Positions 1 to 22,727 of a DNA stretch of 64,000 bases are shown here, piece by piece. The DNA is taken from the IMG/VR virus record IMGVR_UViG_3300027733_000030, positions 1 to 64,000 of that record. The stretch is one strand, 5' to 3'. This DNA is from a virus. The notes beneath the pieces are model-generated. The model was not told the DNA's origin, did not search any database, and saw only the letters and a program-made list of their open reading frames with translations. The translations under genes were made by a program, and so were the position numbers. Position 1 is the first letter of the stretch. Every line of letters starts with the position of its first letter.

Positions 1-47
1 AGAGCTCATCGTTTTAGGAGCATCTATAATTTTTTTAATAAATAATT

Positions 48-674
48 TCATATTATAATTCCATTCTTTCTTCTATATTCATCTTTTAGCCTAATTATTT
101 CTTGCTTGTGTTGCATTCCCACCGTAAAGAACCAGTGTTCTGGTTTTGTGAAATGAAAAAATATCATTTCTACTTCATTCTTAGCTGGATCTGGAAATTT
201 ATTACGCCAATGATATTGGTCTTCCCCATAATACACCGCAGCTTGATTGGGTTCAAGGATCAATTCTTTTCCTTCAACATATATAGGCCATTGGGTCTTA
301 TAGGACATACACATATCAATGGTAAATGTGCAGGCATTGTCGTCTATGTGGTGCGGTAGATTCGCCCTAAATCCCTTATAGGATACCCATAAAGTATAGC
401 TAGATTGGATATCTTCTCCAAAAATATTGCGAGCCTTTGGCAATAAAGTTTTTGCGGCGTCTTCCAGGATAGGATAACCCATATCTTTATCTAGAGTATT
501 TACATGATGCCTACCTAAAATTGGTTCATATGATAAAATATTATTATCTTTAATATCTGATAATGAATTTTTTAAATAAGAAAAATATTCTGGGCTAAAA
601 ACTTCATCCATAATAAAAGCTTCTGGACGTAGATTTAAAGTTCTTCCAGTTTTGTTATCAAAATATGTTTCCAT
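48..674 (-). CDS. 2OG-Fe(II) oxygenase-like protein
   Basis: HxD motif (LPHHIDDNAC) and distal His (DQYHWR) in a DSBH-like pattern; neighbours are oxygenases. Confidence 0.65.
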   Translation of the reverse strand: METYFDNKTGRTLNLRPEAFIMDEVFSPEYFSYLKNSLSDIKDNNILSYEPILGRHHVNTLDKDMGYPILEDAAKTLLPKARNIFGEDIQSSYTLWVSYKGFRANLPHHIDDNACTFTIDMCMSYKTQWPIYVEGKELILEPNQAAVYYGEDQYHWRNKFPDPAKNEVEMIFFHFTKPEHWFFTVGMQHKQEIIRLKDEYRRKNGIII

Positions 675-681
675 AATATTT

Positions 682-1377
682 TTATTTTTCTTGTGGCATT
701 GGTGTAGAGGAAATAATTATTTCTTTATTTTCGTCCTGCATTGTAGTATTGATTATAAATGTACTGATTATCCATTTGTCATCAGAAATTGGAACACAAC
801 CTTGATGTGGGTGAGTCCAGTGGGCTGGGAATAAAGATATAGATCCAGCTTTAGCTGGAACCATTACACTGTGTTCACGAAAATATGTTTCTCCACCTAT
901 TTCTACATCATTTAGATAAATAACTGCACCTAGGACGCGATCACGAGCACCGTCATGGCCCATTCCACCATCTATATGCTCTCGATAAAATCCAATACCT
1001 CTTTTATATTCTTGAACTCTAAATCCAGTATCTCGTATATTATCCCATTCCCATAGGGACTTAAATTGTTCTCGATAATATTCTATACATTGAAAAAGAT
1101 TTTGCACAATAGCTTGTTCGTATATACTAAGGGGATTAAGAGGAACATTGTTCGCTAGTAAATTATCACAAGACAAACCAGTGTCCATGCTATTTTTTAC
1201 AGACGGATTAATGCCACCTAGAGTAGGACCAGGAGAAAATAATTGAGAGTAATACTTCTTAAATTGACTTATGGAATCAGAGCATATTGATTTATCAATA
1301 ATATTTTCTGCCACCATTATTGCGCCACTTTTTCCAGCAGGCCAATAAAAATTAGTATTACTCATCAAATTCTCCAA
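682..1377 (-). CDS. prolyl-4-hydroxylase-like 2OG-Fe(II) oxygenase
   Basis: FYREHID (HxD), VIYLNDVEIGGETYF, HPHQG, KWIISTF. Confidence 0.85.
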   Translation of the reverse strand: MENLMSNTNFYWPAGKSGAIMVAENIIDKSICSDSISQFKKYYSQLFSPGPTLGGINPSVKNSMDTGLSCDNLLANNVPLNPLSIYEQAIVQNLFQCIEYYREQFKSLWEWDNIRDTGFRVQEYKRGIGFYREHIDGGMGHDGARDRVLGAVIYLNDVEIGGETYFREHSVMVPAKAGSISLFPAHWTHPHQGCVPISDDKWIISTFIINTTMQDENKEIIISSTPMPQEK

Positions 1378-1380
1378 ATT

Positions 1381-1617
1381 TTAAAGTGTTAAAAAAGTTT
1401 CATATACATCTAAAACATCACGAAGATGACGTTCCATACTATTCTTCCATGTATCTGAATTAGATAATGGAGTCCATAAAAATTTTCCATCAACTAATTC
1501 TAGTGTCTCTGGATTTATCCCCGCAGTTATTGCGGCAGTATAAAGTTCTAGTTCTAAATTTTTTCTAGCAGATTGTTTGATTAATCTTTTTTGATTTTCT
1601 GATAATATGAGTTCCAT
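1381..1617 (-). CDS. small helical protein, paralog of 5575..5823 and 4565..4834
   Basis: 78 aa; LELELYTAAITAGINPETLE aligns with LKEQLWMTLIDAGLTPENLD. Confidence 0.7.
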   Translation of the reverse strand: MELILSENQKRLIKQSARKNLELELYTAAITAGINPETLELVDGKFLWTPLSNSDTWKNSMERHLRDVLDVYETFLTL

Positions 1618-1629
1618 TATATCTCCCTG

Positions 1630-2442
1630 TTATTTTGATCTAAAAATTTTTTGAAAGAATGATTTATTTTCAGTTTCTATAGAATTATCTACTTCACGCT
1701 GCATTTTTTTATATTTACTCTTTTGATTACGTGGCATGAACGGCCCACCAAATCCTCTATGATTCAACATATGATAAGTTGATTCATCGCCCCAAAGTAT
1801 TTCTGTCGATTTACTTCTTTCAAAAGGAATAACGTGCCAGATAGGTCTACCTATTTCTAACTCAAAAGGTTGATCAGTTAATATATTCATGACCATATTT
1901 GCATGATGATAGTAATCAGTATGGACTATGGCTGGCAACATTGTATAATTTGGATTTGGATCCCAAAGTGGAGGAAGAAAAAGACATGACCATCCTGGGG
2001 CTGTTTTAATTAACCAGGGATTTATAACTTTAATATAGTTAGCTTTTTCTATTTTTCTCACTTTTGTAACAGGACACTCTCCTGTCTGCCCATAGTTAAA
2101 GCCCTCTATGCCAAAGTCGCCCCTATTATGTGCTAGATCAAATTGAGTTTCCCAGCGAGTACGATCCAATGATGGCCTAAACATTAACTTAGCCCACAAA
2201 GGTATTGTAAATCCTACTGAAAGATAATCTGATGTACCAGAGCAGCGCTTTAAACTTCCCTCCTCACCACTCAAGGCTTTCCACCAATCCGGCCAATTGC
2301 CAAGATTTTCATAAGGAATGCATGAGTCATCCATGAGAAGTGCTGACTCGGGGGTTAACAGTACTTGACCTTTTTTTAATTTTGGAATATCATTAAAAGT
2401 TTTTGCACTAACTATTTGCAACTTCTGCGAGCGCTTCTGCAT
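1630..2442 (-). CDS. conserved phage hypothetical protein of oxygenase/halogenase clusters
   Basis: 270-aa ORF with FTIPLW, INPWLIKTAPGWSCLFLPP, LPAIVHTDYY motifs that I recall from proteins beside phage 2OG oxygenases (unverified); start uncertain. Confidence 0.55.
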   Translation of the reverse strand: MQKRSQKLQIVSAKTFNDIPKLKKGQVLLTPESALLMDDSCIPYENLGNWPDWWKALSGEEGSLKRCSGTSDYLSVGFTIPLWAKLMFRPSLDRTRWETQFDLAHNRGDFGIEGFNYGQTGECPVTKVRKIEKANYIKVINPWLIKTAPGWSCLFLPPLWDPNPNYTMLPAIVHTDYYHHANMVMNILTDQPFELEIGRPIWHVIPFERSKSTEILWGDESTYHMLNHRGFGGPFMPRNQKSKYKKMQREVDNSIETENKSFFQKIFRSK

Positions 2443-3883
2443 GATCTACCAATCTTTGTGTAACTAATTGTTTAGTAAAATTCGTTGTATATTCTAACAC
2501 ATCTTTGCGTGAATTGTATGCGTCAAGTTGAATTGAAGCCATTTGCGGATTAAGAACACCTTGCCCTTGAGCAACATGCCATAAGTGCGCTGCTCCAAAA
2601 AGTTCATAATTAGTAGATGGAATATCGGAAATTTCAGGACCACGAACATTCCATAATTGAAGCAGATGTTGCAAAAGTTCTGGCCGATCTGCTTTTTGCT
2701 GGGCTTTCCACATTTCTGTATCATTTCTATCTGAAACATAATGAAGGGAAATCATACAGAGAATATTATTCATCATCGAGTCCATAATTCGATGATACTC
2801 TTTAATTCCATATGTACGATTTTTCTCAAACGTTGGAAGGTAAGAACATATTAATCGAGCTTGTTGAATAGAAGTAGAAATAGATGTAGCCTCAAGTGGC
2901 TCAACAAAAGCTGCGGCTAAACCCACAGCAATGCAGTTATTCTTCCACGTTTCCTTGAAGTACCCTGCCTTAAAGTTAATTACTTTTGCCGGAACAACTT
3001 CGAAACCATGAACTTGAGAAGCCTCCGCTATAGCTTGATCTACAGTACAAAAATCAGAAGAGAATACATATCCATTACCCCGTCTTTTTTGTGTAGGTAT
3101 TTCCCACATCCAACCATTCTTAAGAGCACGGGCTCTAGTATATGGCCTTATTTGTCCAGAAGGATCTGATTCAGTTGGGAATGCAATCGCGGTGTCACAA
3201 GGAAGATATTTTCTATAATCTACAAAAGTTTGATCAGCTATTTTACTAAGAATTTTTCTATTAAATCCTGTGGCGTCTACAAAAAAGTCACCTGAAATTT
3301 CTTTATTTGATTCAGATAAGATAATTGACTCTATAAACCCATCTTGGTCAAGATTGACATCGATAACTTCATCGTCAATAAATACTATGCCTTTATTTTT
3401 TGAGAATTTAACTAAGTACTCATTTAATTTAAAGGTATCAAAATGATATTGATTAGTACCAAAATGAGTTTTTTCACCGTGGTCAATTATTTTATTTTCT
3501 ACCAATCCACGCCAAGAATAAGTATTAGTAAGTAGTCTATTGTTTTCTAAAGCACTAGAGTAACCAGCCCAAAACGTCCCTGCGGTTGGACCTATATCTC
3601 CTACGCTATGAAAATAGTCTGGAGTATGATTTGTCCAATTTTCATATCTAATTCCATATTTATGCGTAATATCAACTTCTTTAATCATGGTATGAACGTC
3701 TATTCCTACCAGCTCCTGGAACATTCTCCAATGTTCAGTAGAGCCCTCACCAACACCTATGATACCCTGTTTACTAGAAGAAACTATTATTACATTATAG
3801 TCTTTGAAAAAAGCTTTAATAATTAAAGCGGTTACCAATCCAGCTGTGCCAGATCCAACTATGACAATTTTTTTTTGATTCAT
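2408..3883 (-). CDS. flavin-dependent halogenase, tryptophan halogenase (PrnA-like) family
   Basis: GSGTAG FAD motif, GVGEG, THKYGI (catalytic Lys position), GWMWEIP (WxWxIP), FVEPLEATSI. Confidence 0.92.
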   Translation of the reverse strand: MNQKKIVIVGSGTAGLVTALIIKAFFKDYNVIIVSSSKQGIIGVGEGSTEHWRMFQELVGIDVHTMIKEVDITHKYGIRYENWTNHTPDYFHSVGDIGPTAGTFWAGYSSALENNRLLTNTYSWRGLVENKIIDHGEKTHFGTNQYHFDTFKLNEYLVKFSKNKGIVFIDDEVIDVNLDQDGFIESIILSESNKEISGDFFVDATGFNRKILSKIADQTFVDYRKYLPCDTAIAFPTESDPSGQIRPYTRARALKNGWMWEIPTQKRRGNGYVFSSDFCTVDQAIAEASQVHGFEVVPAKVINFKAGYFKETWKNNCIAVGLAAAFVEPLEATSISTSIQQARLICSYLPTFEKNRTYGIKEYHRIMDSMMNNILCMISLHYVSDRNDTEMWKAQQKADRPELLQHLLQLWNVRGPEISDIPSTNYELFGAAHLWHVAQGQGVLNPQMASIQLDAYNSRKDVLEYTTNFTKQLVTQRLVDHAEALAEVANS

Positions 3884-4578
3884 AATTTAACAACGTAGAT
3901 TATAGAAGTACCGACAGGAATATGAAAAACGTATTTATCACTATCATTACATAGTCTTTCAAGATATTCATAGAAAGGATGCATATCTTTTGTGGAGTAT
4001 ACTGAACCAAAATCGCTGAACGAAGATACTATCATGCATCCGCCTGGAGATATATGGTCCCAAATATTATCAATAAGCTGTGTGTCATGACTAAATAATT
4101 CAAAGTCAATGACCGCTAAATCATAATCATCGTCAAAGTTTTTTGCTTCAATGTCTTGAAAGGAAATAACTTTCGAATCATCTAACTGCTCACCTAAGTA
4201 ATTCTCTAAGTAATAAGTATTAATTATATTAATGAAATGAGAATTAGGAACAAGATTCTTTAGAGTTGAACCCATTGCAAAACTGATCATTCCAGAAAAT
4301 ACTTTATTTGGCTTTGACAGGTGTATTGCTAATTCAATGAACGATCTACCAATAATTTCTATATCAAATCCAGGACTATCTGAGTTTGTTAAAAGGCCAA
4401 AATAATTTAATTGCAGAGACATACCAAGAGCAGCTCTGCTTCTATCTGCTCCAGTAGACTGTTCTTCTAATAAGAAAGAATTATAGTTATCACACATACT
4501 CTGTTTATCTATTTGTGTAGATAAATTATTGGATAATATATTTGCTATTTTCAATACATCATAATTAGACATTTTCAA
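3880..4578 (-). CDS. class I SAM-dependent methyltransferase-like protein (divergent)
   Basis: C-terminal YDLAVID...IWDHISPGGCMIV pattern; glycine-rich motif I not clear. Confidence 0.45.
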   Translation of the reverse strand: MKMSNYDVLKIANILSNNLSTQIDKQSMCDNYNSFLLEEQSTGADRSRAALGMSLQLNYFGLLTNSDSPGFDIEIIGRSFIELAIHLSKPNKVFSGMISFAMGSTLKNLVPNSHFINIINTYYLENYLGEQLDDSKVISFQDIEAKNFDDDYDLAVIDFELFSHDTQLIDNIWDHISPGGCMIVSSFSDFGSVYSTKDMHPFYEYLERLCNDSDKYVFHIPVGTSIIYVVKL

Positions 4579-4834
4579 TTCTCCATTTTAAACTTTTATA
4601 CATATACCAAAAGCGACGTATTGACAATTGATTCAATCTTAATTTGGCGTATCGACTTCTATCAATCGGAGATAATTCATCACATTCGGAGGATCCAAAA
4701 GTATTGGAACATGAGTTCATTAAATCATTTAAAGTTAAATTATCTATGTCTTCTATAGACATTCCTATAGTTTCACACAAAGTGCCTAATTGTTGAACGA
4801 CGTACTCATAATCTTCCGTTAATCTATAGCCCAT
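4565..4834 (-). CDS. small acidic protein, distant paralog of 5575..5823
   Basis: 89 aa, overlaps both neighbours; VVQQLGTLCETIGMSIEDID aligns with the shared motif. Confidence 0.65.
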   Translation of the reverse strand: MGYRLTEDYEYVVQQLGTLCETIGMSIEDIDNLTLNDLMNSCSNTFGSSECDELSPIDRSRYAKLRLNQLSIRRFWYMYKSLKWRIENV

Positions 4835-4988
4835 CCATATCTCCTATGTTTTCATTTCCAAAAATAATTGGACTGTCTAACATTGCGCACCATAAAATAT
4901 TTTCATCTTTTATCATTCTTGAATTCTCAGTGTCAAAAATTATATCTTGTAGATTTTCTACATTTGGATATTCATTTTCTGGATTCAT
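4824..4988 (-). CDS. 54-aa acidic peptide (not in ORF track)
   Basis: MNPENEYPNVENLQDIIFDTENSRMIKDENILWCAMLDSPIIFGNENIGDMDGL; ATGA overlap with the upstream oxygenase stop; fills the gap exactly. Confidence 0.6.
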   Translation of the reverse strand: MNPENEYPNVENLQDIIFDTENSRMIKDENILWCAMLDSPIIFGNENIGDMDGL

Positions 4989-5575
4989 CTAAACCACGTC
5001 ACTAAAGAATATTTAATTGAATTATCATTAGAACCAACGGGTTCTGCTATATGTATATATGGGAAATTAGAAGGGAACATTATAACTGTTCCGGCCTTGG
5101 GCTTAATCGATACATTAAATCTTGGGAAAGTTAAATTTCCACCCGAGTAACCATCATTTAAAAAGGCAACTAAACTTAACACTCTATTGTTTGTATTGAA
5201 ATGATCATGGTGAGCTGTATACTCTGCACCACCGCCATATTTTAATACTCTATATCCTTCATCAGCTTCAAGATCTAATTCAAAATTATTTCTATAATCC
5301 CAAACAATTGGATCTATCTTAGCCCAAAGATCATTCCACTCTTTAGCTAGAGGCTTAACTCTTTCAATTTGAATATCTCCTGCCCCTAAAGGGGTCAGTT
5401 CACATCCTAGCGAAGTGCGTTTATCAGATACTTCACCGCTTCCCACAGTCGAGCGTTGCCAATTAAGATAACCCCATTGTTGACTGCATTCTTCTTCTAA
5501 TAATTTTAAAAAAATAGAAGCGTTAAATGCATTATCGTATTGAGCAATACAGGTACCATGTTCAGTAAATTTCAT
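4985..5575 (-). CDS. prolyl-4-hydroxylase-like 2OG-Fe(II) oxygenase
   Basis: YTAHHD, SLVAFLNDGYSGGNLTF, FPSNFPYIH, KYSLVTWF. Confidence 0.88.
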   Translation of the reverse strand: MKFTEHGTCIAQYDNAFNASIFLKLLEEECSQQWGYLNWQRSTVGSGEVSDKRTSLGCELTPLGAGDIQIERVKPLAKEWNDLWAKIDPIVWDYRNNFELDLEADEGYRVLKYGGGAEYTAHHDHFNTNNRVLSLVAFLNDGYSGGNLTFPRFNVSIKPKAGTVIMFPSNFPYIHIAEPVGSNDNSIKYSLVTWFR

Positions 5576-5823
5576 TATGCAGGCAGCTCCGACTTAATTT
5601 GCTCTGTGTTATTAATCTGATCTATCATTAGAATAACTTGAGCTCTAAGATGCGCGTTCTGATCAGAAATTTCTGTATCTGGATCAAAATTATCCATGTC
5701 AAGATTTTCCGGTGTGAGCCCTGCATCAATAAGCGTCATCCACAATTGTTCTTTGAGGGATGTAATTCTTACTGAAAGGATTTGATTTTTACGTTCATTA
5801 GTTATTGAATTAAAAAATGTCAT
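5575..5823 (-). CDS. small helical protein, first gene of the tailoring operon
   Basis: 82 aa; AAGGAG RBS upstream; paralog of 1381..1617. Confidence 0.75.
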   Translation of the reverse strand: MTFFNSITNERKNQILSVRITSLKEQLWMTLIDAGLTPENLDMDNFDPDTEISDQNAHLRAQVILMIDQINNTEQIKSELPA

Positions 5824-5848
5824 TTTTTCTCCTTAATTGTGATTGTAT

Positions 5849-5857
5849 ATTATACCA
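5849..5857 (-). promoter_or_regulatory. extended -10 sigma70-type promoter (TGGTATAAT)
   Basis: TGnTATAAT in the intergenic gap, about 25 nt upstream of the 5823 start. Confidence 0.6.
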
Positions 5858-5865
5858 TATTTTTT

Positions 5866-7728
5866 TTAAATATCTATTAACTTAGAATAATTAGAATGGC
5901 CAATTTGATTTGTCGCATTAAAGTTGCCCGGATTTCGAGTAACAAGAATTATACCACCAGTTGAACCAGTAACTCCTGTGCCACCTGGATTAGCTGCTCC
6001 AGCTGCTCCAGCTGCTCCACCAGTGCCTCCAGTATAGTTGGCATTTGTGGCATTGTGGTTTGGCGCTGCTGCTCTATTGCTAGTAACGGCGCCTGTTGAA
6101 ACGTTTAAAGTAGCAGCTGTATGCGGGTGTGATCCAGCATTATAGCCAGCGGGATGCGGATTCCCGCTATGAGGAGCCGTACCCGTACTGCCAGCTGGGT
6201 GAGGAGTACTGCCTGCCGGATGAGGATGATGTCCAGCATGATGATGATTTCCTCCCGTATGTCCTAGTGTATTTGCTGTATGGGGCACGCCTGCAGGTCC
6301 AGCATTTGTAGCTGGGTGTGGACCTGTTGGACTATGGTGATGGCCGTGACCAGCATTAGTGTAAACATGACCATTATGATGATCGTTTCTTCCTGAATTA
6401 GGGAATGCTCCCGCAGCGTGAGAATACGGATGATTGCCGGCGTTGTGATTGCCCGCATTATGAGTGGCAGCAGTGTGTCCAGAGCCGGGGTTGTGGTTTC
6501 CATTTTTTGAGTTGATAACATTACCATTATGGTTAGTATTCCCGCCAGTTCCAGTTCCACCATGTGTCCAGTGCTGCGCGGGCACATGTGCTGCATTTGA
6601 TGTTGAGTTATGGCCTGATACACCAGGGCCATTCACTGGGTGATGATGATGTCCAGTGCCTGCATTATGGGCAGATCCTCCATTATGGGCAATTATATAC
6701 GTAATATATGGGCCGGTACGGTGAGTTACTGCATTATGACCATGGGATCCATGAGCGTGGTTTTCTGAAGTTGGATGATTTCCAGCAGCTATGTGTAGCA
6801 CTGCGTTATGAGGATTAGCGTGCGGTCCCCCATCTGGATGGGGGTGCGATCCTGCAGGGTGCGGATGGGCTCCAGCGTTATGACTAGCTGCGTATGGGGT
6901 TCCTGTAGTAGCCGTAACTACGACGCCGCCCGTAGTATGGGGATAATTTCCTAAAGTGTGGTATGCAGTTATGCTAGGAGCAGAGTTTCCTGCGGTACCA
7001 GAGTTACCCTGTGTAGCTGGGTTGCCTGCGGATCCAGCAGCTCCATAACTCACTAAAGTTCCAGAGCCTGCAATTGTTTTAGCGAAAATAATAACCAATC
7101 CACCACCAAGACCACCAGCGCCACCAGTTCCAGCTGTTGCCGGATTACCAGCGGTACTAGCATTACCTGCACCACCAGCTTGACCTGTCAAGGCTCCAGG
7201 AAAGTTTCCGGCGTTTCCAGCGAATGGACCCGTTGCAGCTGAAGTAATGCTTCCAGCACTTCCTTGGGCCCCTAATGAACCTGCACCAATTTTGGTAATA
7301 GTTCCCGCGCCAGTAATAAACCATCCAGATACTGAATCGTCTAAGTCATAAAGATCCGTTACGGATATAGTATCTGTACTCGTACCCCAAGCTTTAGATG
7401 GATTGAGGGAAGTTTGTCTTCCGGCAATTGTTCCACTTCCATCTGTTACAGAGTGAGTAACTGCGGCGGGCATACCAACTGTTCCGTTATTTGTGAAAGT
7501 TCCATTGACAAAAATGCGGAATCCATTTGTAAATAATGTAACACCACTATTAACCGTAAGATTAGTACAGTATATATCTTTTACTAATTTATAAACGTTT
7601 GAAGTTGGAGCTAATGAAATTACTGTAGCTGTGCCGTCAAATGTAGCTGCGCTATCAGTACCTTCTCCAAAAATAGCGTCTCCGCCTTCTCTCTGAACAA
7701 TAGGTCTGTTTGTTCTTTTAATCGCCAT
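5866..7728 (-). CDS. Gly-rich virion/fibre protein with a long His-rich insertion
   Basis: 620 aa; about 54 His counted in roughly 285 aa; HNAG and HPHPAG repeats; N-terminal domain paralogous to 7730..8548. Confidence 0.75.
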   Translation of the reverse strand: MAIKRTNRPIVQREGGDAIFGEGTDSAATFDGTATVISLAPTSNVYKLVKDIYCTNLTVNSGVTLFTNGFRIFVNGTFTNNGTVGMPAAVTHSVTDGSGTIAGRQTSLNPSKAWGTSTDTISVTDLYDLDDSVSGWFITGAGTITKIGAGSLGAQGSAGSITSAATGPFAGNAGNFPGALTGQAGGAGNASTAGNPATAGTGGAGGLGGGLVIIFAKTIAGSGTLVSYGAAGSAGNPATQGNSGTAGNSAPSITAYHTLGNYPHTTGGVVVTATTGTPYAASHNAGAHPHPAGSHPHPDGGPHANPHNAVLHIAAGNHPTSENHAHGSHGHNAVTHRTGPYITYIIAHNGGSAHNAGTGHHHHPVNGPGVSGHNSTSNAAHVPAQHWTHGGTGTGGNTNHNGNVINSKNGNHNPGSGHTAATHNAGNHNAGNHPYSHAAGAFPNSGRNDHHNGHVYTNAGHGHHHSPTGPHPATNAGPAGVPHTANTLGHTGGNHHHAGHHPHPAGSTPHPAGSTGTAPHSGNPHPAGYNAGSHPHTAATLNVSTGAVTSNRAAAPNHNATNANYTGGTGGAAGAAGAANPGGTGVTGSTGGIILVTRNPGNFNATNQIGHSNYSKLIDI

Positions 7729-7729
7729 T

Positions 7730-8548
7730 TTATACTACCTGTGAATAAATAACAGTACCCGCACTACAACCAGTTCCACCAGTAACATCGGTTGATACGC
7801 CAGAAGTCAGAACTCCAGCAGATGAAATAATAATTATTACTCCACCTCCACCGCCGCCAGAACCAGAAGTCCCAGGCGCTTTAATTGTAGCTGCTGCTGT
7901 AGTGCTAGAAAGACCAATGTATCGCGCCGCAAGAATCACTACTCCTCCGCCTAGACCTACTGTGCCCCCTGCGCCACCTCTCAATGGCGTAGGGGTTAAA
8001 GATGTACCAGTAATAGAGTAACCCTTTATTGCCTGAAAGGGTTGATAGTAATAATTAGTTCCTCCCGTAGCTGCAGTGGGTGCTACTGCTGAGTAAGACG
8101 CACTGGAACCACCAAGACTGTGGGCTACTGGCGATGTTGAAGCGTTATTTATAGCTCCCCCCTGCTGAATAGAACCAGTAGTGCCAAATCCTGTTGTATG
8201 ACCTATTACAGATAGATTTCCAAGCGTTAAAACATTTTGAACAAAAATTCTGTACCCTGCGGGATTTAGTCTAATGTTATCATCAATTATTAAATTAAGT
8301 GTAAATATATCCTGCGTCATAGTAAATACGCTGGCACTATATGTTAGCCCTAGTGAAGTTGTAGCTGATGAATATGTTCCCGCAGCTCCATTTGTTGTAT
8401 TCAACGTTGCCGTCCCGTGCGCAGCAGAACCATAAACTGGATCTGGAGCATCAAGAAAGCCAGTCAAGTTAGAGTTCGCTTTTGACGTTGTTGATGGTCC
8501 AGAGGCGACGCTGAGACCACCTCCATTCGTAAAAATGAACTTTCCCAT
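7730..8548 (-). CDS. Gly-rich virion/fibre protein
   Basis: 272 aa; QDIFTLNLIIDDNIRLNPAGYRIFV matches KDIYCTNLTVNSGVTLFTNGFRIFV of the neighbour; GGGVVILAA motif. Confidence 0.7.
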   Translation of the reverse strand: MGKFIFTNGGGLSVASGPSTTSKANSNLTGFLDAPDPVYGSAAHGTATLNTTNGAAGTYSSATTSLGLTYSASVFTMTQDIFTLNLIIDDNIRLNPAGYRIFVQNVLTLGNLSVIGHTTGFGTTGSIQQGGAINNASTSPVAHSLGGSSASYSAVAPTAATGGTNYYYQPFQAIKGYSITGTSLTPTPLRGGAGGTVGLGGGVVILAARYIGLSSTTAAATIKAPGTSGSGGGGGGVIIIISSAGVLTSGVSTDVTGGTGCSAGTVIYSQVV

Positions 8549-8549
8549 T

Positions 8550-8927
8550 TTAGTATCCTACGTATCCATTAATCATATAGTTAACTGACGTTGAACTTGC
8601 AAGTCCACGTATGTTGTCTGAATACGTATAGTTTGGCGTAGCCGCACTACCGTTATTATTATACATTACAACGGAAGTCGATAAAGTAACTGTTTCGTTA
8701 GCTGCAAGTGATAATGAGTTAACAAAAATATGCGAACTTGCTACAGTTACTCCATATGGTTTCAAATACAAGGTTACTGTTTGAGTAGAGGCAGATGTAT
8801 TGCACAGTATTATTTCTTTAATTACAACGGTGGTTACTTGTCCCGCGTTATATGGGGCAGTATATAGGTCTGCGGCTGACGTGCTAAATGCCGATGGACC
8901 AACAAGTCTAGTTGGTGTCATAGCCAT
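8550..8927 (-). CDS. small beta-rich virion structural protein
   Basis: 125 aa, LYTAP...VIKEIILCNTS pattern typical of small phage tail-associated proteins; tight operon. Confidence 0.6.
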   Translation of the reverse strand: MAMTPTRLVGPSAFSTSAADLYTAPYNAGQVTTVVIKEIILCNTSASTQTVTLYLKPYGVTVASSHIFVNSLSLAANETVTLSTSVVMYNNNGSAATPNYTYSDNIRGLASSTSVNYMINGYVGY

Positions 8928-9127: not shown

Positions 9128-12100
9128 TTAGTTCGTATATCCGTAGAGTTTCCACGTTGCATTGATATTGGCGGGACTGGCGCCAAGTCTGAAAGTAGAA
9201 AGTGTAAATCCGTTATATGCAGTTGCCACGGAGTGGCGCACTGCACCAGTGTATGTTCCAAAATAAGAACTATTTTGAACTGTTATATTAGTGTTATCCG
9301 CAATATTTGGGCGACAGATATCCATTGCAATACTACTATCACCACTATTAGATGCTGTTCCAATAATGCCGAATGTAGCATTTTCTAAACCATAAGAATC
9401 TGTAGTGCCACTCCATAGCATTCCACTCAAAGCGCTGTAATAACCGGTTACTGAATCTGTTGAAGTTGCTCGTAAATTTATACCAATCAAATACAACAAA
9501 GAAGAATCAGTTGTTATATTTGATAATACTAATTTATAATTATCATAAGTTGAACTGAATACACTACTTATTGATGCCGTTGTTGCACCAGAGAATGTAC
9601 CACTAGATATGTAAACAAGACCAAGATCAGCGGTTGTAGCGACAGTGCCTGCCTTGTTCGGGAGTGTCAACGTTCTGTCTGCCGTAAGTGTCGTTGGTGT
9701 TAAAGTTACTTCGTAAGTACCAGTGCCGCCTGCACGCCCGGTAAGAGCAATTCCGTCTTGTGTTGCTGCTGCACGAACTGTTGTTGTACCTACTACATCT
9801 AACTTTGTTGCTGGTGTCGTAGTTCCGATACCAGTATTGCCACTGGCATCGATAACAAATGGTGTTGTGTCACCACCCGTTGCATCTTCAACTATAAAAG
9901 AATAACCTGCGCCACCGTTAAGAACACGCATAGCACCCCAACCGTTACTGGCAGAGTGGAGGACATCAAGCGTGTAAGAAGGCGATGATGTCATAATACC
10001 AACTTTTTGATTGGTATTACTAGCCGATATAACGCCATTATCTCCTAAGATTGTGTCGCCCGATACACGAAAATTACTGTCAATTTGGGTATCTCCAGCA
10101 ACTTGTAAAGTATATATCGGGGCATCTGTACCGATACCAACACGATTTGTTGTTGGGTCAACTACCAAAGTGTTGGTATCTACCGTTAAGTCGCCCGTGA
10201 CTGTCAGCGAACTTAAAGTACCTACAGAAGTGATACCTGTTTGAGCAGCATTGACCGACAGTGTGTTGCCAGACTTGGATAGTCCAGTACCAGCAGTGAT
10301 TTGACCAGCGCCAGAAAACTGTGTAAAAGAAAGTGATGTTGTGCCAAGTGTGATTGGGTCGTTGGTAGTGAGCACATAGCCCATATCGGCACTGACTGTT
10401 CCCTCAGAAACAAAGACATACATTCCGCTTGTAACTTTTGCTGATGTATTTGCATCTGTAGACCTTGATGCTACTCCAGATGCTACGACAACATAGATAC
10501 CATTTTCTGAGGCTGTTGTCTGGTTTTTGAGCAGAACACGGTCACCAGTTGCTACAACTACACCATCAATTGTTGAGGCGTTTGTAAGGGCAGAAGCAAC
10601 GGTGATGTTTACTGTTGAAGCGACTCTAACCGAATCTTTAATGTCAAGGCTCTGCGTGATGGCATCGGCGTAGGCTTTAGTGACAGCATCAGTTGAGTTT
10701 GTCGGAGTTGGGACTGTTACGGTCCCAGTAAAAGTAGGTGAAGCCAACTTTGCATAACCTTGACCTACTACATAGGCGGTAGTCGCAATTTGTGTCGTAT
10801 TGGTATCTACAGCAGCAGTAGTGCTTAAAGGAACACCAGTAAAAGTAGGACTAGCAATGTTTGCTTTTAAGCCATCATTACCGTTTAACTTTTGGAATGC
10901 CTGTAAAATACTGTCTGTAGCAGCAACGGTTCCAGCACCTGAAACATAGCCCGTTAGCACTTTTGCAATAACAGGAGCGTTAGTTAAGGTCGTAGCATTA
11001 CCGACACTTGTGACGTCCCCCGTAAGGTTTGCGTTAGTAACTACTGTTGCTGCGTTACCAACGGAAGTCACTCCGCCAGTCAAGTTGGCATTAGTGGTTA
11101 CGGTCGCAGCATTACCAGTCGTGTTTTGATTCCAAGTAGGAACAGTTCCTGTTAAACCAGTATAAGCAACATTGGTAGCAGTAGAGGCATTGCCTGTTAA
11201 TGGACCAGAAAATCCTGCTGCCGTTAGTGTTGTCCCATCGAACGTCAGGTTTGCGCTACCTGCTGCAGCATTTGTTCCGTCTTTGTAAACAACTTGGTTA
11301 GCGGAACCAGCGACTGGACCAGTGGCACCTTGTGGTCCTTGACTGCCTGTTGCGCCTTGAGATCCAGTCGCACCTTGTGGTCCTTGCGTTCCTTGAGGGC
11401 CAGTCGAGCCTTGCGAGCCAGTCGTACCCGTCGCTCCTTGAGGTCCGGTTGCACCTTGTGGACCAGTCGTGCCCGTAGCTCCTTGAGGGCCGGTTGCACC
11501 TTGCGAGCCTGTTGTACCTTGGGGTCCAGCAGCTCCTTGAGATCCAGTTGCACCCTGCGGTCCTTGGGCGCCTGTGCTTCCCTGCGGGCCCACATTTCCT
11601 TGGGCACCTGTTGAACCTTGTGGTCCTGTAGCTCCTTGAGGACCTGTTGCTCCTTGAGTTCCTGTGGCACCTTGGGCTCCAACGGATCCTTGCGGGCCTT
11701 GGGGGCCAGTAGAGCCTTGAGGACCCGTGTCTCCTTGGGGACCAGCAGCACCTTGGGATCCTGTTGCACCTTGGGGGCCAGCAACTCCTTGGGGTCCTTG
11801 TGGTCCAGTTGCACCTTGGGAGCCAGTAGCGCCTTGGGAGCCTGTTGCTCCCTGAGATCCAACATCACCTTGGGGGCCTGTTGCTCCCTGAGATCCTGTT
11901 GCTCCCTGGGCTCCAACAGATCCCTGTGGACCTTGAGGGCCAGTAGTACCCTGTGGTCCTATTGAACCCTGAGGGCCCGTTGAACCTTGCGATCCAGTGT
12001 CTCCCGTGGTGCCAGTAGCTCCCTGTGCGCCAGTGGCTCCTTGAGCTCCAGTTGCTCCCTGAGGGCCCGTTGCACCCTGCGAACCAGTTGCACCTTGTGC

Positions 12101-13696
12101 GCCTGTATTACCAGTATCACCTTTGTCGCCAGTACGAACAAATGTAATAATTATATCTTGACCATTTGCCCATGATGGAGAAGAGCCAGTCAGATAAGTA
12201 ACTGGAACTTTATAATATGAGGATACATAAGTGTGTGCTCCACTTATTGCGTAATAAGCAAAGACCGCTGAATTCCCAACTTCTTCTACCCTAAAGTGTC
12301 CCTTAATTGCGGAACTTGAATCATCAATTGTTTCAAGATATGCAGATACATCTACAGAGTTACTGTCAACTGGGTCTATGTATAAGAAAGTTGCAGTTGA
12401 AAAAGTATTATTAAACTTTAAGTTTGTTGTGCCGGGATCACTATCTGCTGTACTTGTTAAATAATTATATGAAAAAGTTGCTCCGCCAAAAGAGCCCGTT
12501 GCTCCCTGTGCCCCAGTGCTACCCTGAGATCCTGTGGCACCTTGAACTCCCTGTGGACCAACGGATCCCTGAGCTCCCGCATCCCCCTGTGGCCCAGTTG
12601 CCCCCTGGGGACCTGTAGATCCCTGAGATCCTGTTGAGCCTTGGGGGCCTGTTGCACCTTGCGCTCCTTGTGAGCCAACTGCACCTTGAGGACCGACGTC
12701 TCCCTGCGGTCCAGTTGAGCCCTGAGATCCAGTCGATCCCTGAGACCCTGTGGCCCCTTGTGAACCAGTGGCTCCTTGAGATCCAGCAACTCCCTGAGGA
12801 CCTATATCTCCTTGAGCTCCCGTAGATCCTTGGGCTCCAGTTGAGCCTTGAGCTCCTGTTGCACCCTGAGATCCAACACTGCCCTGAGGGCCCTGAGAAC
12901 CTGTTGCCCCTTGTGAGCCAGTGGCACCTTGGGGACCAACGTCACCTTGAGGTCCACTGCTACCAACTGACCCTTGGCTGCCCTGCGCTCCAGTAGCACC
13001 CTGAGGTCCCGTTGCACCTTGGGTGCCAGCTGAACCTTGTGGGCCCTGAGATCCAGTAGCTCCTGTTGCCCCTTGGGGGCCAGTAGAACCTTGTGGGCCT
13101 ATATCTCCTTGAGCGCCAGTGGAACCTGTGGCGCCTTGGGGACCAGTAGCCCCCTGAGAACCTGTGGCTCCTTGAGAGCCCGTAGCTCCTTGGGAGCCTG
13201 TGGCTCCTTGAGGGCCTTGTGGACCTTGTACACCAGCAAGAAGACTGGTGCCAACACCATTGCCTCCAGTACTTATGTCAAGATAAAAACCTCTTGCATT
13301 TCCGCCTTGCTCAAAGAAACGAAGTCTGTTTTGCCAAACGTCAATAGTGACTCCACCAGTAAGGGTGGTATTGGTGACTGCTTTCTTTAGGAAAATTTCA
13401 CCACCCTCATCACCAGATGAGTTATTGGAGATGAGGTTGCCTCCAGCAGCTATATTGCCAGAAACTGAGACGGCGGATGGTAAGCTTACAACAAAAGAGC
13501 CAGAGGTTTCAGTTACAGTAATTTGATCTGTAGTGCCAGTAATTCCAGTAATTAATTTAGCGCCAACAATAGTATTAGATGCGTTCTTATAGAATAACTT
13601 ACCATCTGCGTAGTTTAATGCCAGTTCGCCATGAGTCATAGAAACAGGTACAGACGTAGTCGTACCTGAATTCTTAACTAAAATAGTATTAGCCAT
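9128..13696 (-). CDS. collagen-like long tail fibre protein
   Basis: 1522 aa; N-terminal [15 protein letters not shown] fibre-attachment-type motif, two Gly-X-Y tracts, Thr/Gly-rich phage fibre modules. Confidence 0.88.
11312..12130 (-). repeat. collagen Gly-X-Y tract 2 (about 91 triplets)
   Basis: [12 protein letters not shown] triplets in the translation. Confidence 0.95.
12488..13234 (-). repeat. collagen Gly-X-Y tract 1 (about 83 triplets)
   Basis: [12 protein letters not shown] triplets in the translation. Confidence 0.95.
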
Positions 13697-13750: not shown

Positions 13751-14548
13751 TTATTCTGTTGTGCCAGAACAAGATTCTAAATCTTCAAAACGTTTAGTAA
13801 TCAAATTATCATATTTAGCTGCGATTTCTGCAACGTTGTGTTGAATCAAGGCGTTGCGTGTACGCTGTGCAGTGAAGGGACCAATGTGTTGCTTGTAAAT
13901 CATTTTGGGAATATAATTAAATTTAGTAATTAAAAAAGTTCTAACAACTAAATCAAAATCATCTGCTACAGTAAAACGAGGATCATGCCCATTTAATTCC
14001 CTATAGACACTAGCTCGCCATGCACGTACATGATTAGGTGCCGAAACGATATGTCTAATAGTAGTGGGATTGACTTCTGGAGCACGCATTGTCCAGACTT
14101 GATGCTCTTCGTCCCAGTAATCTGAACCGTAACCAAAAGCCCAACCGTCTGGATATCTTCCAGATTGACCATCAGGTAAAATTTCACACCAATCAGAATA
14201 AACAAATCCAACTTCTGGATCAGTAAATGCGTCAGCAATTAACTGTAGTGCGTCGGGCATTAATTCATCATCGTGATCTAACTCTACTAGAATGTCACCT
14301 TCGGCTGCCATCATGCACTGACGTTTAACTCTGCCAATACTTCCGGAATGGACGTGTGATTTATGCGCCATCAGTCTGAATCTTTCATCAGATGCTAAAC
14401 CATAAATTTGACTCCATGTATCATTATTAGTAGAGTCGTCCCAAACGACCCACTCCCAATCAGTATAAGTCTGAGATTTAAGACTTGCCCAAGTTCTAGC
14501 TAGAATACTTGGATCAGTATTATAAGTTGGTGTACAAATAGAAATCAT
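13751..14548 (-). CDS. glycosyltransferase family 2
   Basis: ISICTPTYN, VVWDDS, ELDHDD (DxD), DDFDL. Confidence 0.9.
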   Translation of the reverse strand: MISICTPTYNTDPSILARTWASLKSQTYTDWEWVVWDDSTNNDTWSQIYGLASDERFRLMAHKSHVHSGSIGRVKRQCMMAAEGDILVELDHDDELMPDALQLIADAFTDPEVGFVYSDWCEILPDGQSGRYPDGWAFGYGSDYWDEEHQVWTMRAPEVNPTTIRHIVSAPNHVRAWRASVYRELNGHDPRFTVADDFDLVVRTFLITKFNYIPKMIYKQHIGPFTAQRTRNALIQHNVAEIAAKYDNLITKRFEDLESCSGTTE

Positions 14549-18425: not shown

Positions 18426-19166
18426 CTATTTATAGTTATTTTGCACGTAAACAGGATACGTTCCGTCTATTTCATAGTACTTTAGGGGGAACCTATCGAA
18501 TGGATCTATGCCATCCTGTATTCTTTGCAGGATAGATTGTACGGATTTGAATTCATCTTTATTATATTCCGTATGGGCAAAGGATTCTATCTTTTTAACT
18601 ATGTCTTGTTCGCTGGCAAAATAAGAAAAATGCCATCCCGCATCGGGAATAATATTTTTAGTATTTGATCTCAAATCTTGGGGGGTTGTGTTTGCCAGAT
18701 GCTGAAACTTCAGAGCCACTGGTCTTGCCCCCTGGTTGCAGTGTTGTGGAGCCATCCAATGAAAGTTCCAGAAGTATTGATTATTATCTAATCTTGTAGG
18801 TAGTTTAATTTTTTTCAATTTCCGTATAACAGATGGTTTAATTATTTCATCTGCGTCAGATATTAAAATTACGTCATTCTTCTCAGCAAGAGACAGCCCA
18901 TCTACGATAGCGTTTCTTTGAAAGTATTCTCTTTCCCAAGATGTCGATAATGAAGAAGGAAAATCTATTCTTACTTTAATAATTTTATCCTGCCACCGTT
19001 CAATCCAGCTGGAAACATCATCTAGATAGAACGGTTTATCAATGCCGGTAAACGTTTGTGACGCCTCGACAATCACAAAGTAATCTACGACATCATTAAG
19101 CTCTTCCAATCTTAGACGAAGAATATCTTCTTCATTAAAATATGTAAAACAATCAAATATTTTCAT
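18426..19166 (-). CDS. glycosyltransferase family 17-like (beta-1,4-GlcNAc transferase)
   Basis: DCFTYFNEEDILRLRLEEL, VIVEASQTFTG, REYFQRN, SDADEI, GWHFSY. Confidence 0.85.
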   Translation of the reverse strand: MKIFDCFTYFNEEDILRLRLEELNDVVDYFVIVEASQTFTGIDKPFYLDDVSSWIERWQDKIIKVRIDFPSSLSTSWEREYFQRNAIVDGLSLAEKNDVILISDADEIIKPSVIRKLKKIKLPTRLDNNQYFWNFHWMAPQHCNQGARPVALKFQHLANTTPQDLRSNTKNIIPDAGWHFSYFASEQDIVKKIESFAHTEYNKDEFKSVQSILQRIQDGIDPFDRFPLKYYEIDGTYPVYVQNNYK

Positions 19167-19611
19167 ACACTAATACATTCTCATTTTTAAAGATTGAATA
19201 TCTTCTAATGTCAGTTTCCACTTGTGCATTAATAGTTAGATATTTTCCAAGATCATTTGCCCAAACACCTGGATTGACCAACATTGCAAAACCACCAGGT
19301 TTTAAAAAGTTTTTAATCTGGCTGGCTGTCATATCGGTGTCACCGTTTAAAAGTTTTGGATCATAATTAAATGAAATAAATAAATCACAAATTGATTCGC
19401 CAAAATGCATTCCGTTAACACCAACCTCCCAGTACTTGCACCAGTCGTTAGAGAAATATTTTTCTCTTTCAGTATGTAACATAAACGCACCAATGCTGTG
19501 CTTAGGTGTGCGCAAAACATCTATCAGTTCTTTGTTGCGACCATAAACAGTTGTGAATGTTCTTTCGCGGAACACATCTCTAATTATATGTGCTACGTAG
19601 TCCCAGTTCAT
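19153..19611 (-). CDS. hypothetical protein, possibly a degenerate methyltransferase
   Basis: FLKPGGFAMLV segment only. Confidence 0.45.
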   Translation of the reverse strand: MNWDYVAHIIRDVFRERTFTTVYGRNKELIDVLRTPKHSIGAFMLHTEREKYFSNDWCKYWEVGVNGMHFGESICDLFISFNYDPKLLNGDTDMTASQIKNFLKPGGFAMLVNPGVWANDLGKYLTINAQVETDIRRYSIFKNENVLVYENI

Positions 19612-19619
19612 AATATATA

Positions 19620-20159
19620 TTATAGCACAGGTTTACGGGCATCGACTTTAAGCCAGCCCCATTCATCTCCACGCTTAACATCCAATATCTCAAAACCCAT
19701 TGTTTCAAAGTCGTCTTGTAACATTCTGTGCGTTAAGCCTACAAAGTGAAAGTCAAAAGGATTGAGTTGTTCAGCAAAAAAGATTTGCTGCATTCTTCTG
19801 TCTCCATCAAGCGAGTCCATGGTAATCAATTGATTACAGGCTAGAATAAAGTCTGGGACTTCTATTCTGATCATGCCACCTGGCTTAACGATTCGACACC
19901 ATTCAGCTAATACTGATTGATATTCTTTCCAAGGAAAATGTTCTAGGCATTCTGAGTTATAAACTATGTCAGCGTAGTTATCCGGAAGATCGATTTTGCG
20001 AGCATCACATACAACGTCTACTGGAACAGTTCGTTTATTAACATGATCATATAGTGGAGTTGGATCTATGTCAATGTGCATCCAGTCTGGGCCAAGATAT
20101 GTTCTAGTTCCTATGACTACCTTAATGCCGTCGCCTTGCGGAATAGTTTCTAGTCTCAT
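19620..20159 (-). CDS. class I SAM-dependent methyltransferase
   Basis: CLEHF, EWCRIVKPGGMIRIEVPD; start at MRLET (TGATG overlap). Confidence 0.8.
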   Translation of the reverse strand: MRLETIPQGDGIKVVIGTRTYLGPDWMHIDIDPTPLYDHVNKRTVPVDVVCDARKIDLPDNYADIVYNSECLEHFPWKEYQSVLAEWCRIVKPGGMIRIEVPDFILACNQLITMDSLDGDRRMQQIFFAEQLNPFDFHFVGLTHRMLQDDFETMGFEILDVKRGDEWGWLKVDARKPVL

Positions 20160-21019
20160 CAGATCATTCTTCCTCTGTAGAAATTGGTCCATCTAGGAAC
20201 TTTAATAAGATCGACTTCTCTACCCAATGCTGCTATATATATCGTCTCTGGATTTTCATTTATTCCCTGTAGTTCCGGCTGTGATTGATACCACTCTTCT
20301 AGATATATGGCGCTCCAATCTTCAAATCTGGTTACATTAGGACTATGGTACGTGACATTCGGGCCAACGTAATATTTATTCCACTTGTTAACCCAATTAA
20401 CAACACCTTCATTAATCCTATTTCTAGATGCGGGATCATTTGAGCTAGTTGAATCATGCCGCACTTGGACAGATGGATCAGCTATCATTTTCCAACCGTC
20501 AAGTCTAAGACGAGTTTGGTAATCGACTTCTTCTTGATGACCGATCTGAGTATCAAATCCACCAATTCGCAAGTATGCCTGTTTCTTAAGCATCCAGCAG
20601 AAACCTACGCCCCATAGTATCTCTGTATACTTGGGTCTTTGAATTTGATAAGCTCCACCGTTAGGGAAGGCCATGGCAACTTCTAAGTTTGTAGCAAGAT
20701 ACCCCGCAAGTTTTTCGTCCCATCCATGAGTTGTCACATAGGCGTCGTTATCTAAGTAGCCGAGATAATCTGTTTCGGCCCATTCTAATATTTGATTAAC
20801 TGCTCCGACGTATCCACTATTGTGATCTAGAAATCTTGGAATGATTCTTGAATCTTCACTAGCGTGTCTTTCAATAACTTCTCTGACACCTGGGTCAGTC
20901 GAAGCATTATCGACAACTAGAAAGCGCCAATCGGAAGTAGAGTTCTCTCTCATATTAATGAGCATCATATTTAACTTCTGAGGATTATTATAACTAGCAG
21001 TGCCCATATCTATTCTCAT
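20159..21019 (-). CDS. glycosyltransferase family 2
   Basis: VVDNASTD, NSGYVGAVN, YLDND, GGFD...EEVD; start at MRIDM (ATGA overlap). Confidence 0.88.
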   Translation of the reverse strand: MRIDMGTASYNNPQKLNMMLINMRENSTSDWRFLVVDNASTDPGVREVIERHASEDSRIIPRFLDHNSGYVGAVNQILEWAETDYLGYLDNDAYVTTHGWDEKLAGYLATNLEVAMAFPNGGAYQIQRPKYTEILWGVGFCWMLKKQAYLRIGGFDTQIGHQEEVDYQTRLRLDGWKMIADPSVQVRHDSTSSNDPASRNRINEGVVNWVNKWNKYYVGPNVTYHSPNVTRFEDWSAIYLEEWYQSQPELQGINENPETIYIAALGREVDLIKVPRWTNFYRGRMI

Positions 21020-22633: not shown

Positions 22634-22727
22634 TGGCGGAGAGAGTGGGATTTGAACCCACGGATGTATTTTACCACATCGACATCTTAGCAGGATGTTC
22701 CATTCAACCGTACTCTGGCACCTCTCC
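22634..22727 (-). tRNA. tRNA-Ser(GCT) with encoded CCA
   Basis: acceptor GGAGAGG/TCTCTCC, anticodon stem ACATC-CTGCTAA-GATGT, long variable arm, GGTTCAAATCC T-loop, 3' GCCA. Confidence 0.93.

Follow-up and report, generated by a model that had tools for sequence, protein, structure and literature searches.

The question raised by this locus is what a predicted flavin-dependent halogenase and a set of oxygenases act upon in a phage in which their genes lie directly beside those of fibre-like proteins. The locus is an operon of ten genes at 48..5823, on the minus strand, of positions 1 to 64,000 of the IMG/VR virus record IMGVR_UViG_3300027733_000030; this 64 kb stretch of an uncultured tailed phage is referred to here as the window. 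Across environmental contigs the enzyme set is linked to a fibre-like module, f3-f2-F1-s1, and it is this linkage which is new here. The best-supported reading is that the enzymes modify the co-inherited fibre-like protein, enzymes and module forming a two-part accessory cassette, a proposal to which we would give slightly less than an even chance. The features concerned are listed below in the order in which they lie along the minus strand.

9128-13696, minus strand: F5, collagen-like fibre (PF01391)
8550-8927, minus strand: f3, 125 amino acids, phrog_20100, first gene of the f3-f2-F1-s1 module
7730-8548, minus strand: f2, 272 amino acids, Gly-rich, predicted beta-helix-like, strongly conserved
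5866-7728, minus strand: F1, 620 amino acids, rich in Gly, His and Asn, 9.2% His
5849..5876, minus strand: predicted sigma-70-type promoter (TAGATA, 16 nt, TG-n-TATAAT)
5575-5823, minus strand: s1, helical protein of 82 amino acids, s-family
4985-5575, minus strand: OxA, predicted 2-oxoglutarate (2OG)-Fe(II) oxygenase of prolyl 4-hydroxylase (P4H) type, PF13640
4824-4988, minus strand: s3, acidic protein of 54 amino acids, found in the close clade only (11 loci)
4565-4834, minus strand: s4, protein of 89 amino acids with invariant W76 and W84
3880-4578, minus strand: g5, predicted cation-dependent O-methyltransferase fold
2408-3883, minus strand: HAL, predicted flavin-dependent halogenase, PF04820
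1630-2442, minus strand: g7, predicted dUTPase-fold protein of 270 amino acids, Syn9 gp43 family
1381-1617, minus strand: s8, paralogue of s1, 78 amino acids
682-1377, minus strand: OxB, predicted P4H-type 2OG-Fe(II) oxygenase, PF13640
48-674, minus strand: OxC, probable 2OG-Fe(II) oxygenase, Syn9 gp54 family

Linkage of the enzyme genes to the fibre-like module

The distribution of the cassette was followed in IMG/VR by two scans made in opposite directions. The first, seeded with the halogenase, yielded 80 loci in which HAL is 44-85% identical to that of the window, and the second, carried out with a profile of f2, yielded 78 further loci; together they cover around 150 environmental contigs. 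Among the 80 halogenase-seeded loci, OxA was found in 76, g7 in 74, OxB in 62 and g5 in 23, and both F1 and f2 lie within 10 kb of the halogenase gene in 68-69. Of the loci in which f2 and F1 are missing, eight stop or are truncated next to the cluster (L078 being too short for a judgement) and three, L021, L030 and L037, belong to another lineage. In the reverse direction the halogenase is present in 64 of the 78 f2-seeded loci, and each of the other 14 stops 2.3 kb or less past F1. The enzyme block is located downstream of F1 in most loci, and the linkage is kept despite the block lying upstream (L048, L064, L068, L076), being inverted (L070-73, L118-121) or being split (L065, L067).

In the window F1, f2, f3, f4 and F5 lie directly upstream of the operon, just as an earlier reading made from the letters of this DNA alone (hereafter the sequence-only reading) had placed it after His-rich and collagen fibre genes. 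The proposed tie to the His-rich gene is borne out by linkage in both directions over the contigs scanned, and persists through rearrangement. The collagen fibre, however, does not hold as a linked partner, as the position of F5 varies and the constant partner is f3-f2-F1-s1. The Pro residues of F5 chiefly occupy the X position, as part of GPQ triplets, unlike the classical prolyl hydroxylation site, which is X-Pro-Gly.

Contigs which share a DnaE polymerase 73-76% identical to that of the window were also compared. HAL, g7 and f2/F1 are all present in one of them (G024, 92% complete) and all missing from the other three (G026, 97%; G027, 100%; G025, 84%), thus indicating that the cassette is accessory and occurs or is missing as a unit. 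The relatives without the cassette carry PF13640 genes, seven each in G025 and G026 and one in G027, and those which were inspected are immediate neighbours of genes that match tail-fibre PHROGs (e.g., G026:C1:94000-136000, loci L283-L285); P4H-like oxygenases therefore recur beside different fibre genes in this phage family.

Within the module F1, the gene right after f2, is the most His-dense open reading frame (ORF) in 79 of 79 non-redundant loci, with 10-45 His in the densest 100 amino acids, and this His-dense region cannot be aligned between distant members. In the window it forms a stretch of around 300 amino acids which is almost uncharged and is rich in His, Asn, Pro and Gly. The N-terminus of F1 is homologous to f2 (BLASTP E 6e-7), which itself has only viral relatives in the ESM Atlas and beta-helix proteins as structural neighbours; a tblastn search with f2 against 50,697 phage records gave no match. 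In every arrangement F1 is directly followed by an s-family protein, wherever the enzymes lie and on whichever strand, and a paralogue of this protein sits inside the enzyme block.

The operon and its proteins

The ten ORFs are packed into 48..5823 with junctions that range from a 35-nt overlap, in which the start of g7 lies over the halogenase gene, to a 12-nt gap; they are translationally coupled and form a single operon. The sequence TGGTATAAT is found at 5849-5857 on the minus strand, 26 nt ahead of the start of s1. As the enrichment of TGnTATAAT over the whole window is mild (13 found against 7.4 expected, with 3 of 100 shuffles reaching 13), the promoter is called because it is kept in relatives and not from the motif alone: an extended -10 or full promoter stands at the same position in L017, L002, L003 and L007, in one case as a perfect TTGACA-17-TATAAT. 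This supports the site upstream of s1 being a genuine sigma-70-type promoter, and both the tight coupling and the separate promoter described in the sequence-only reading are thus upheld. A second exact copy of TGGTATAAT is present at 5948-5956 (minus strand), 99 nt upstream of the promoter copy, within the end of the F1 coding region, where it forms the codons for G-G-I-I. Between F1 and s1 there is no terminator-like site, and late read-through from the fibre genes is therefore just as possible as the early expression from a host-type promoter which the sequence-only reading had proposed. The operon had also been described as self-contained, which has to be qualified because no flavin reductase is found among its ten genes, the rest of the window never having been scanned for one.

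Further genes of the window are those for a DnaE-type polymerase, whose exonuclease subunit is separate, for a helicase, primase, ribonucleotide reductase and sigma factor, and for virion proteins; the enzyme operon is situated in the fibre module, not in the replication module. The closest phage polymerase in the reference collection is at most ~39% identical to its DnaE, and a blastn search with positions 1-8000 of the window gave zero matches in the same 50,697 phage records; a cultured close relative is therefore nonexistent. CheckV estimates for related IMG/VR contigs give a genome size of ~200-215 kb, and a search for relatives that started from a virion gene at a distance of 45 kb yielded only fragments, which stopped short of the enzyme/F1 module and were thus uninformative. 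A single tRNA-Ser (GCT) gene, at 22634-22727 on the minus strand, adjoins the polymerase exonuclease-subunit gene. A GT2 gene at 13751-14548 adjoins the collagen-like fibre gene, and is found after OxC instead in many relatives, and a block at 18426-22609 contains genes for a GT17-like enzyme and a further glycosyltransferase as well as a nucleotide-sugar epimerase-like gene.

HAL matches PF04820 with an E-value of 1e-103 and 348 bits (cut-off 21) over residues 5-448 of 491. It possesses the flavin adenine dinucleotide (FAD) motif G10-S-G12-T-A-G15, the second motif G257-W-M-W-E-I-P263 and also FVEPLEAT; in 63 relatives G10, G12, G15, W258, E261, I262 and P263 are conserved at 95% or above, and the same applies to K75, E328 and E331. 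Within T-x-K-x-x-x-R, K75 lines up with the Lys found in SttH and Tar14, and it is equivalent to K79 of PrnA. Among the PDB relatives are SttH (3e-63), Tar14, PyrH, BrvH and PrnA, and the matches that span the full length comprise, among others, BrvH (6frl) and 6y1w, a putative halogenase from Xanthomonas. As regards a C-terminal module for the binding of free L-tryptophan, the alignment with PrnA stops at HAL residue 398 and that with RebH at residue 412, the final ~90 residues being unaligned. On its profile match and motifs HAL is assigned to the flavin-dependent halogenases of the tryptophan-halogenase family, as the one true flavin halogenase that the operon is predicted to hold, and the PrnA-like enzyme with hallmark motifs which had been proposed before is thereby confirmed at the level of the family.

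Three 2OG-Fe(II) oxygenases had been proposed as well, of which two are clear and one is probable. OxA and OxB match PF13640 with 55.1 and 39.7 bits (cut-off 27), and carry the catalytic sets H122, D124 and H175 with the 2OG-binding basic K188, and H134, D136 and H191 with K201, respectively. In the PDB a profile of OxA finds protein prolyl hydroxylases and nothing else, with the P4H of B. anthracis in first place (1.8e-15), and the B. anthracis P4H entries are the sole solved relatives of OxB. OxC has an invariant H109-x-D111 together with invariant H155, H174 and H180, its profile matches Syn9 gp54 (2e-9) and HTVC008M gp068, and its nearest named ESM Atlas clusters are of P4H/PF13640 type (0.91-0.93). 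Scanning all 16 members of its family gave no Pfam match, nothing was found with its profile in the PDB, and its hhalign comparison with OxA was not significant. OxC is thus probably a 2OG-Fe(II) oxygenase, judged by the HxD...H pattern, the gp54 match and the ESM Atlas neighbours.

The methyltransferase-like character given to g5 in the sequence-only reading stands for its fold and falls for its sequence. The AlphaFold2 model (mean predicted local distance difference test score, pLDDT, 83.3) has the tRNA methyltransferase TrmR as best Foldseek match (E 3.6e-8, probability 1.0, template modelling (TM) scores 0.59-0.65), and many further O-methyltransferases come after it, the fold being that shared by TrmR, CCoAOMT and COMT. 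However, neither Pfam nor NCBIfam gave a match and the best PDB profile match has an E-value of 0.09; moreover, the alignment shows no conserved Gly after strand 1, where the Gly-rich S-adenosylmethionine (SAM) motif I would stand. The predicted methyltransferase assignment is accordingly kept to the level of the fold.

The dUTPase-fold protein g7, which the earlier reading did not recognise, is the most constant partner of the halogenase, adjoining its gene or lying inside the enzyme block in all 74 of the loci in which it was counted. The AlphaFold2 model has a pLDDT of 88.6; all 27 Foldseek matches at E <= 0.001 are dUTPases, and the top 22 VIA-align matches all belong to the dUTPase/dCTP-deaminase superfamily (Z 9.8-5.8). 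C67 and C123 are invariant in 33 sequences. Motif III can be aligned, but its catalytic Asp is replaced by Asn in the family consensus and by His in the window, and motif IV is without its Arg and Gln, 'GDRIAQLI' standing opposite 'GtplahvI' in the hidden Markov model (HMM) alignment. With these residues replaced g7 is taken to have the fold but is not classed as a dUTPase, and a working dUTPase, with the operon acting on nucleotides, was a candidate that was downgraded after this motif check. A profile of g7 matches the ORF of Syn9 gp43 (E 3.1e-15); from this match, the conserved cysteine and the position by the halogenase, g7 is placed in the gp43 family.

Searched against 185,579 species genomes, the g7 profile found three loci only, all of them the phage module on contigs binned into metagenome-assembled genomes (MAGs), and therefore no cellular context was gained. 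Two, from a Gammaproteobacteria MAG (L165, PBNR01000003.1; L166, PBNR01000075.1), hold the whole f3-f2-F1 ... OxA-HAL-g7 module, and the third (L164, RHAS01000028.1), a 9-kb contig in an Actinomycetota MAG, holds the OxA-HAL-g7 part; all three are probably phage contigs or prophages binned with cellular genomes. Relatives of g7 in the cyanophage S-RIM4 (L083:4827-5621) and the haloarchaeal tailed virus HF2 (L084:4833-5717) adjoin genes for ribonucleotide reductase, and within 5 kb of either no halogenase came to light.

The small proteins of the operon are each encoded directly upstream of an enzyme gene, s1 and s8 each preceding a P4H-like oxygenase. The hallmark of the s-family is G-x-D-P-D/E, its Pro being kept by 96% of the 61 members. 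According to hhalign s1 and s8 are paralogues (probability 89%, E 2e-6), and s8 has an invariant F46-x-W48-x-P50. A third paralogue in s4 was considered and is unsupported (hhalign probability 12%). The operon had been described as a machine resembling those for RiPPs, peptides which are made on the ribosome and modified afterwards. In the alignments s1, s4 and s8 are conserved over their full length with no division into leader and core. The operon gave no match to a RiPP recognition element (RRE) or other recognition domain, to a protease or to a transporter family, although divergent forms are possible.

Relation to known systems

Halogenases of phages have been known since 2005, first as transient cargo (PMC1079782), with that of P-SSM2 regarded as probably non-functional by Sullivan et al. 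(2005; PMC1079782), and later as secondary-metabolite enzymes (PMC2938197, PMC7824862). We found no report in the literature of a natural substrate for any viral halogenase. A neighbourhood of dioxygenase, halogenase and dUTPase-fold genes was described in the cyanophage Syn9 by Iyer et al. (2010; PMC2938197), who defined the gp43 family as dUTPase-fold proteins with a conserved cysteine in halogenase/dioxygenase neighbourhoods, and who proposed that such cyanophage clusters make halogenated, hydroxylated secondary metabolites (PMC2938197). As the g7 profile leads to gp43 and the OxC profile to gp54, the enzyme set of the window is a compact member of this known type of neighbourhood. The two clusters have three protein families in common as well as the order of halogenase (gp41/42), g7-like gp43, small gene (gp44, 73 amino acids) and oxygenase, and that of Syn9 likewise comes after a tail-fibre gene, gp34, and the Gly-rich gp36/38/39. 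However, the window cluster is much smaller, with three oxygenases, one halogenase and no JmjC/MINA-like member; HAL is just 25-27% identical to gp41 and gp42; the window phage is a non-T4 phage with a DnaE polymerase; and its cluster is tied to f3-f2-F1-s1, a module without homologues among cultured phages.

In the Kyanoviridae, where its setting varies, the halogenase gene is found close to genes for fibres or fibre assembly in Syn9, S-H38 and P-SSM2. In the small phage lineage mentioned above (L037:6189-12595, also L030 and L021) a tail-fibre gene is followed by those for a PF21722 Gly-rich protein (28-32% Gly), a 2OG oxygenase and the halogenase. Syn9 gp36/38/39 and a 296-residue ORF of S-H38 (L082:2545-3432), with 22-36% Gly, are located upstream of halogenases. 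The f2 profile matched no ORF of Syn9, HTVC008M or S-H38, and the hhalign probability between f2 and the PF21722 proteins is 0.2%; the Gly-rich proteins beside the halogenases of other lineages are therefore analogous and not homologous to those of the module.

The cyanophage halogenase VirX1 (PDB 6qgm) is now used as a tool in biocatalysis. It resembles HAL in being a viral member of the tryptophan-halogenase family (listed in PMC8407142), but is distant from it (E 1.8e-34, over residues 144-394 only), the bacterial SttH being closer. For OxA and OxB the nearest solved relatives are the P4Hs of B. anthracis (3itq, 5hv0) and of the chlorella virus PBCV-1 (5c5t), which share the HxD...H and Lys with them and whose reaction is the hydroxylation of protein proline; the PBCV-1 enzyme has been cited as a precedent, the viral use of P4H being called cryptic (PMC9301287). 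Members of the HAL family which act on Trp in ribosomal peptides, and even on whole proteins, are also on record, namely ChlH, a flavin halogenase of peptides or proteins (10.1101/2025.01.12.632611), and a marine RiPP brominase which is guided by a leader and brominates proteins too (PMC10286304; related PMC10858898). These, however, belong to defined RiPP clusters with precursor peptides, and no such peptide was found in the window operon.

What the enzymes may act upon

If the fibre-like protein is the target, the operon would be the enzyme half of the cassette and the beta-helix-like, Gly-rich proteins of f3-f2-F1-s1 the other half, with F1 as the candidate substrate by way of its long uncharged loop. 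OxA, OxB and probably OxC would hydroxylate side chains of the fibre-like protein, Pro being the likeliest target. HAL, receiving FADH2 from a host reductase, would form a hypohalite equivalent at K75 and then halogenate an electron-rich ring, either on the fibre-like protein or on a small partner protein, and in the subclade with g5 the hydroxyl might in turn be O-methylated. The s-family proteins would serve as adaptors or chaperones between F1 and the enzymes, and g7 as a dUTPase-fold partner of the halogenase which is probably not a dUTP hydrolase. What the sequences show are the gene content, the catalytic motifs, the folds, the conservation of the promoter, the linkage and the joint presence or absence; we infer the chemical steps, the identity of the substrate and the place of F1 in the virion. 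Among these steps P4H-like hydroxylation is the best grounded, and the existence of flavin halogenases which act on peptides and proteins makes it plausible that the fibre-like protein is halogenated as well.

There are a number of points which weigh against modification of the fibre-like protein. F1 has no PHROG or Pfam match and is a putative virion protein only; its loop is poor in Trp and Tyr, and we know of no flavin halogenase that acts on histidine. The lack of a recognisable SAM motif I in g5 counts in the same direction, and the role of g7 is left unaccounted for. The linked loci all come from one broad phage family, and the synteny is therefore partly just inherited, while the surroundings of fibre genes are common sites for the insertion of accessory genes. 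Moreover, the enzymes are found apart from these fibre genes, an arrangement which the sequence-only reading had regarded as telling against it: L021, L030 and L037 combine a halogenase 55% identical to HAL with a 2OG oxygenase and have no F1, f2 or g7; the enzyme set of the Kyanoviridae occurs without homologues of f2 and F1; and the halogenase gene of HTVC008M is flanked by terS and terL, that of S-PM2 being close to nrd genes. Such independence is thus partly seen. A more specific version, in which the His-rich loop of F1 is displayed on a beta-helix fibre-like protein of the virion and is both hydroxylated and halogenated by the co-encoded enzymes, with g7 and the s-family proteins as specificity factors, is possible but should be considered unlikely as it stands.

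It is also rather unlikely, though to be taken seriously, that the enzymes make a diffusible or cell-surface product, such as a halogenated and hydroxylated amino-acid or sugar metabolite or a decoration of the host envelope glycan, in line with what Iyer, Aravind and colleagues put forward for the cyanophage clusters, in which case the position by the fibre genes would be that of an insertion hot spot or mobile cassette. The occurrence of a halogenase and a 2OG oxygenase without F1 in other phages would fit such a product, as would the glycosyltransferases and sugar epimerase-like gene at 13.7-22.6 kb of the window and the full-length matches of HAL to BrvH and 6y1w, whose in-vitro substrates are free indoles. 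The enzyme set of Syn9, moreover, has been read as one of secondary-metabolite biosynthesis (PMC2938197). However, the operon has no builder of a scaffold (a non-ribosomal peptide synthetase, NRPS, a polyketide synthase, PKS, or an ATP-grasp enzyme) and no exporter, proteins are the substrates of the solved enzymes related to the oxygenases, and P4H-like genes recur beside unrelated fibre genes in the same phage family. The enzymes and f2/F1 are also strictly co-present or co-absent, and if a small molecule is made, one would still have to account for the strict tie to a His-rich protein.

Alternatively, the small proteins may themselves be the substrates, in the manner of RiPPs, giving a modified peptide or small protein which acts on the host or on F1. 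Each small gene stands immediately 5' of an enzyme gene, the conserved Pro of the s-family, the invariant Trp of s4 and the F-x-W-x-P of s8 would offer targets to halogenation and hydroxylation, and gp44 of Syn9 is placed between the g7-like gp43 and an oxygenase gene. Against this, conservation over the full length shows no leader and variable core, and no protease, recognition domain or exporter was found in the operon; furthermore, an s-family member comes after F1 also in loci whose enzymes lie at another place or on the opposite strand, which is better suited to a chaperone or adaptor of F1. We therefore regard this as distinctly improbable.

A nucleotide or nucleic-acid target, with g7 binding a (deoxy)uridine or cytidine nucleotide which the oxygenases hydroxylate and g5 methylates, deserves very little credence: it would agree with the dUTPase fold of g7, the ribonucleotide reductase genes beside its relatives in S-RIM4 and HF2 and the TrmR match of g5, but the motif III Asp of g7 is Asn or His and the motif IV Arg and Gln are missing, the operon is in the fibre module and not the replication module, the oxygenases are of P4H and not of TET/JBP or AlkB type (Tet_JBP match of only 18 bits, under the cut-off of 34.9), and no flavin halogenase with a nucleobase as its substrate is known to us.

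Modification of the co-inherited fibre-like protein thus remains the reading that we favour, and the cassette offers a concrete, genetically defined candidate substrate, with a minimal set of the ten genes plus F1. Should the F1 loop prove to be hydroxylated and halogenated, it would be the first natural substrate of a viral flavin halogenase and would give the first halogenated phage particle, possibly along with the first enzymatic halogenation of histidine, whilst g7 and the s-family would represent new factors which hand a protein substrate to enzymes. If the fibre-like protein is the target, the cassette would also be a source of protein-directed halogenases and adaptors for enzyme engineering, and it would follow that phages use oxidative and halogenating chemistry to diversify or harden the parts with which they bind receptors.

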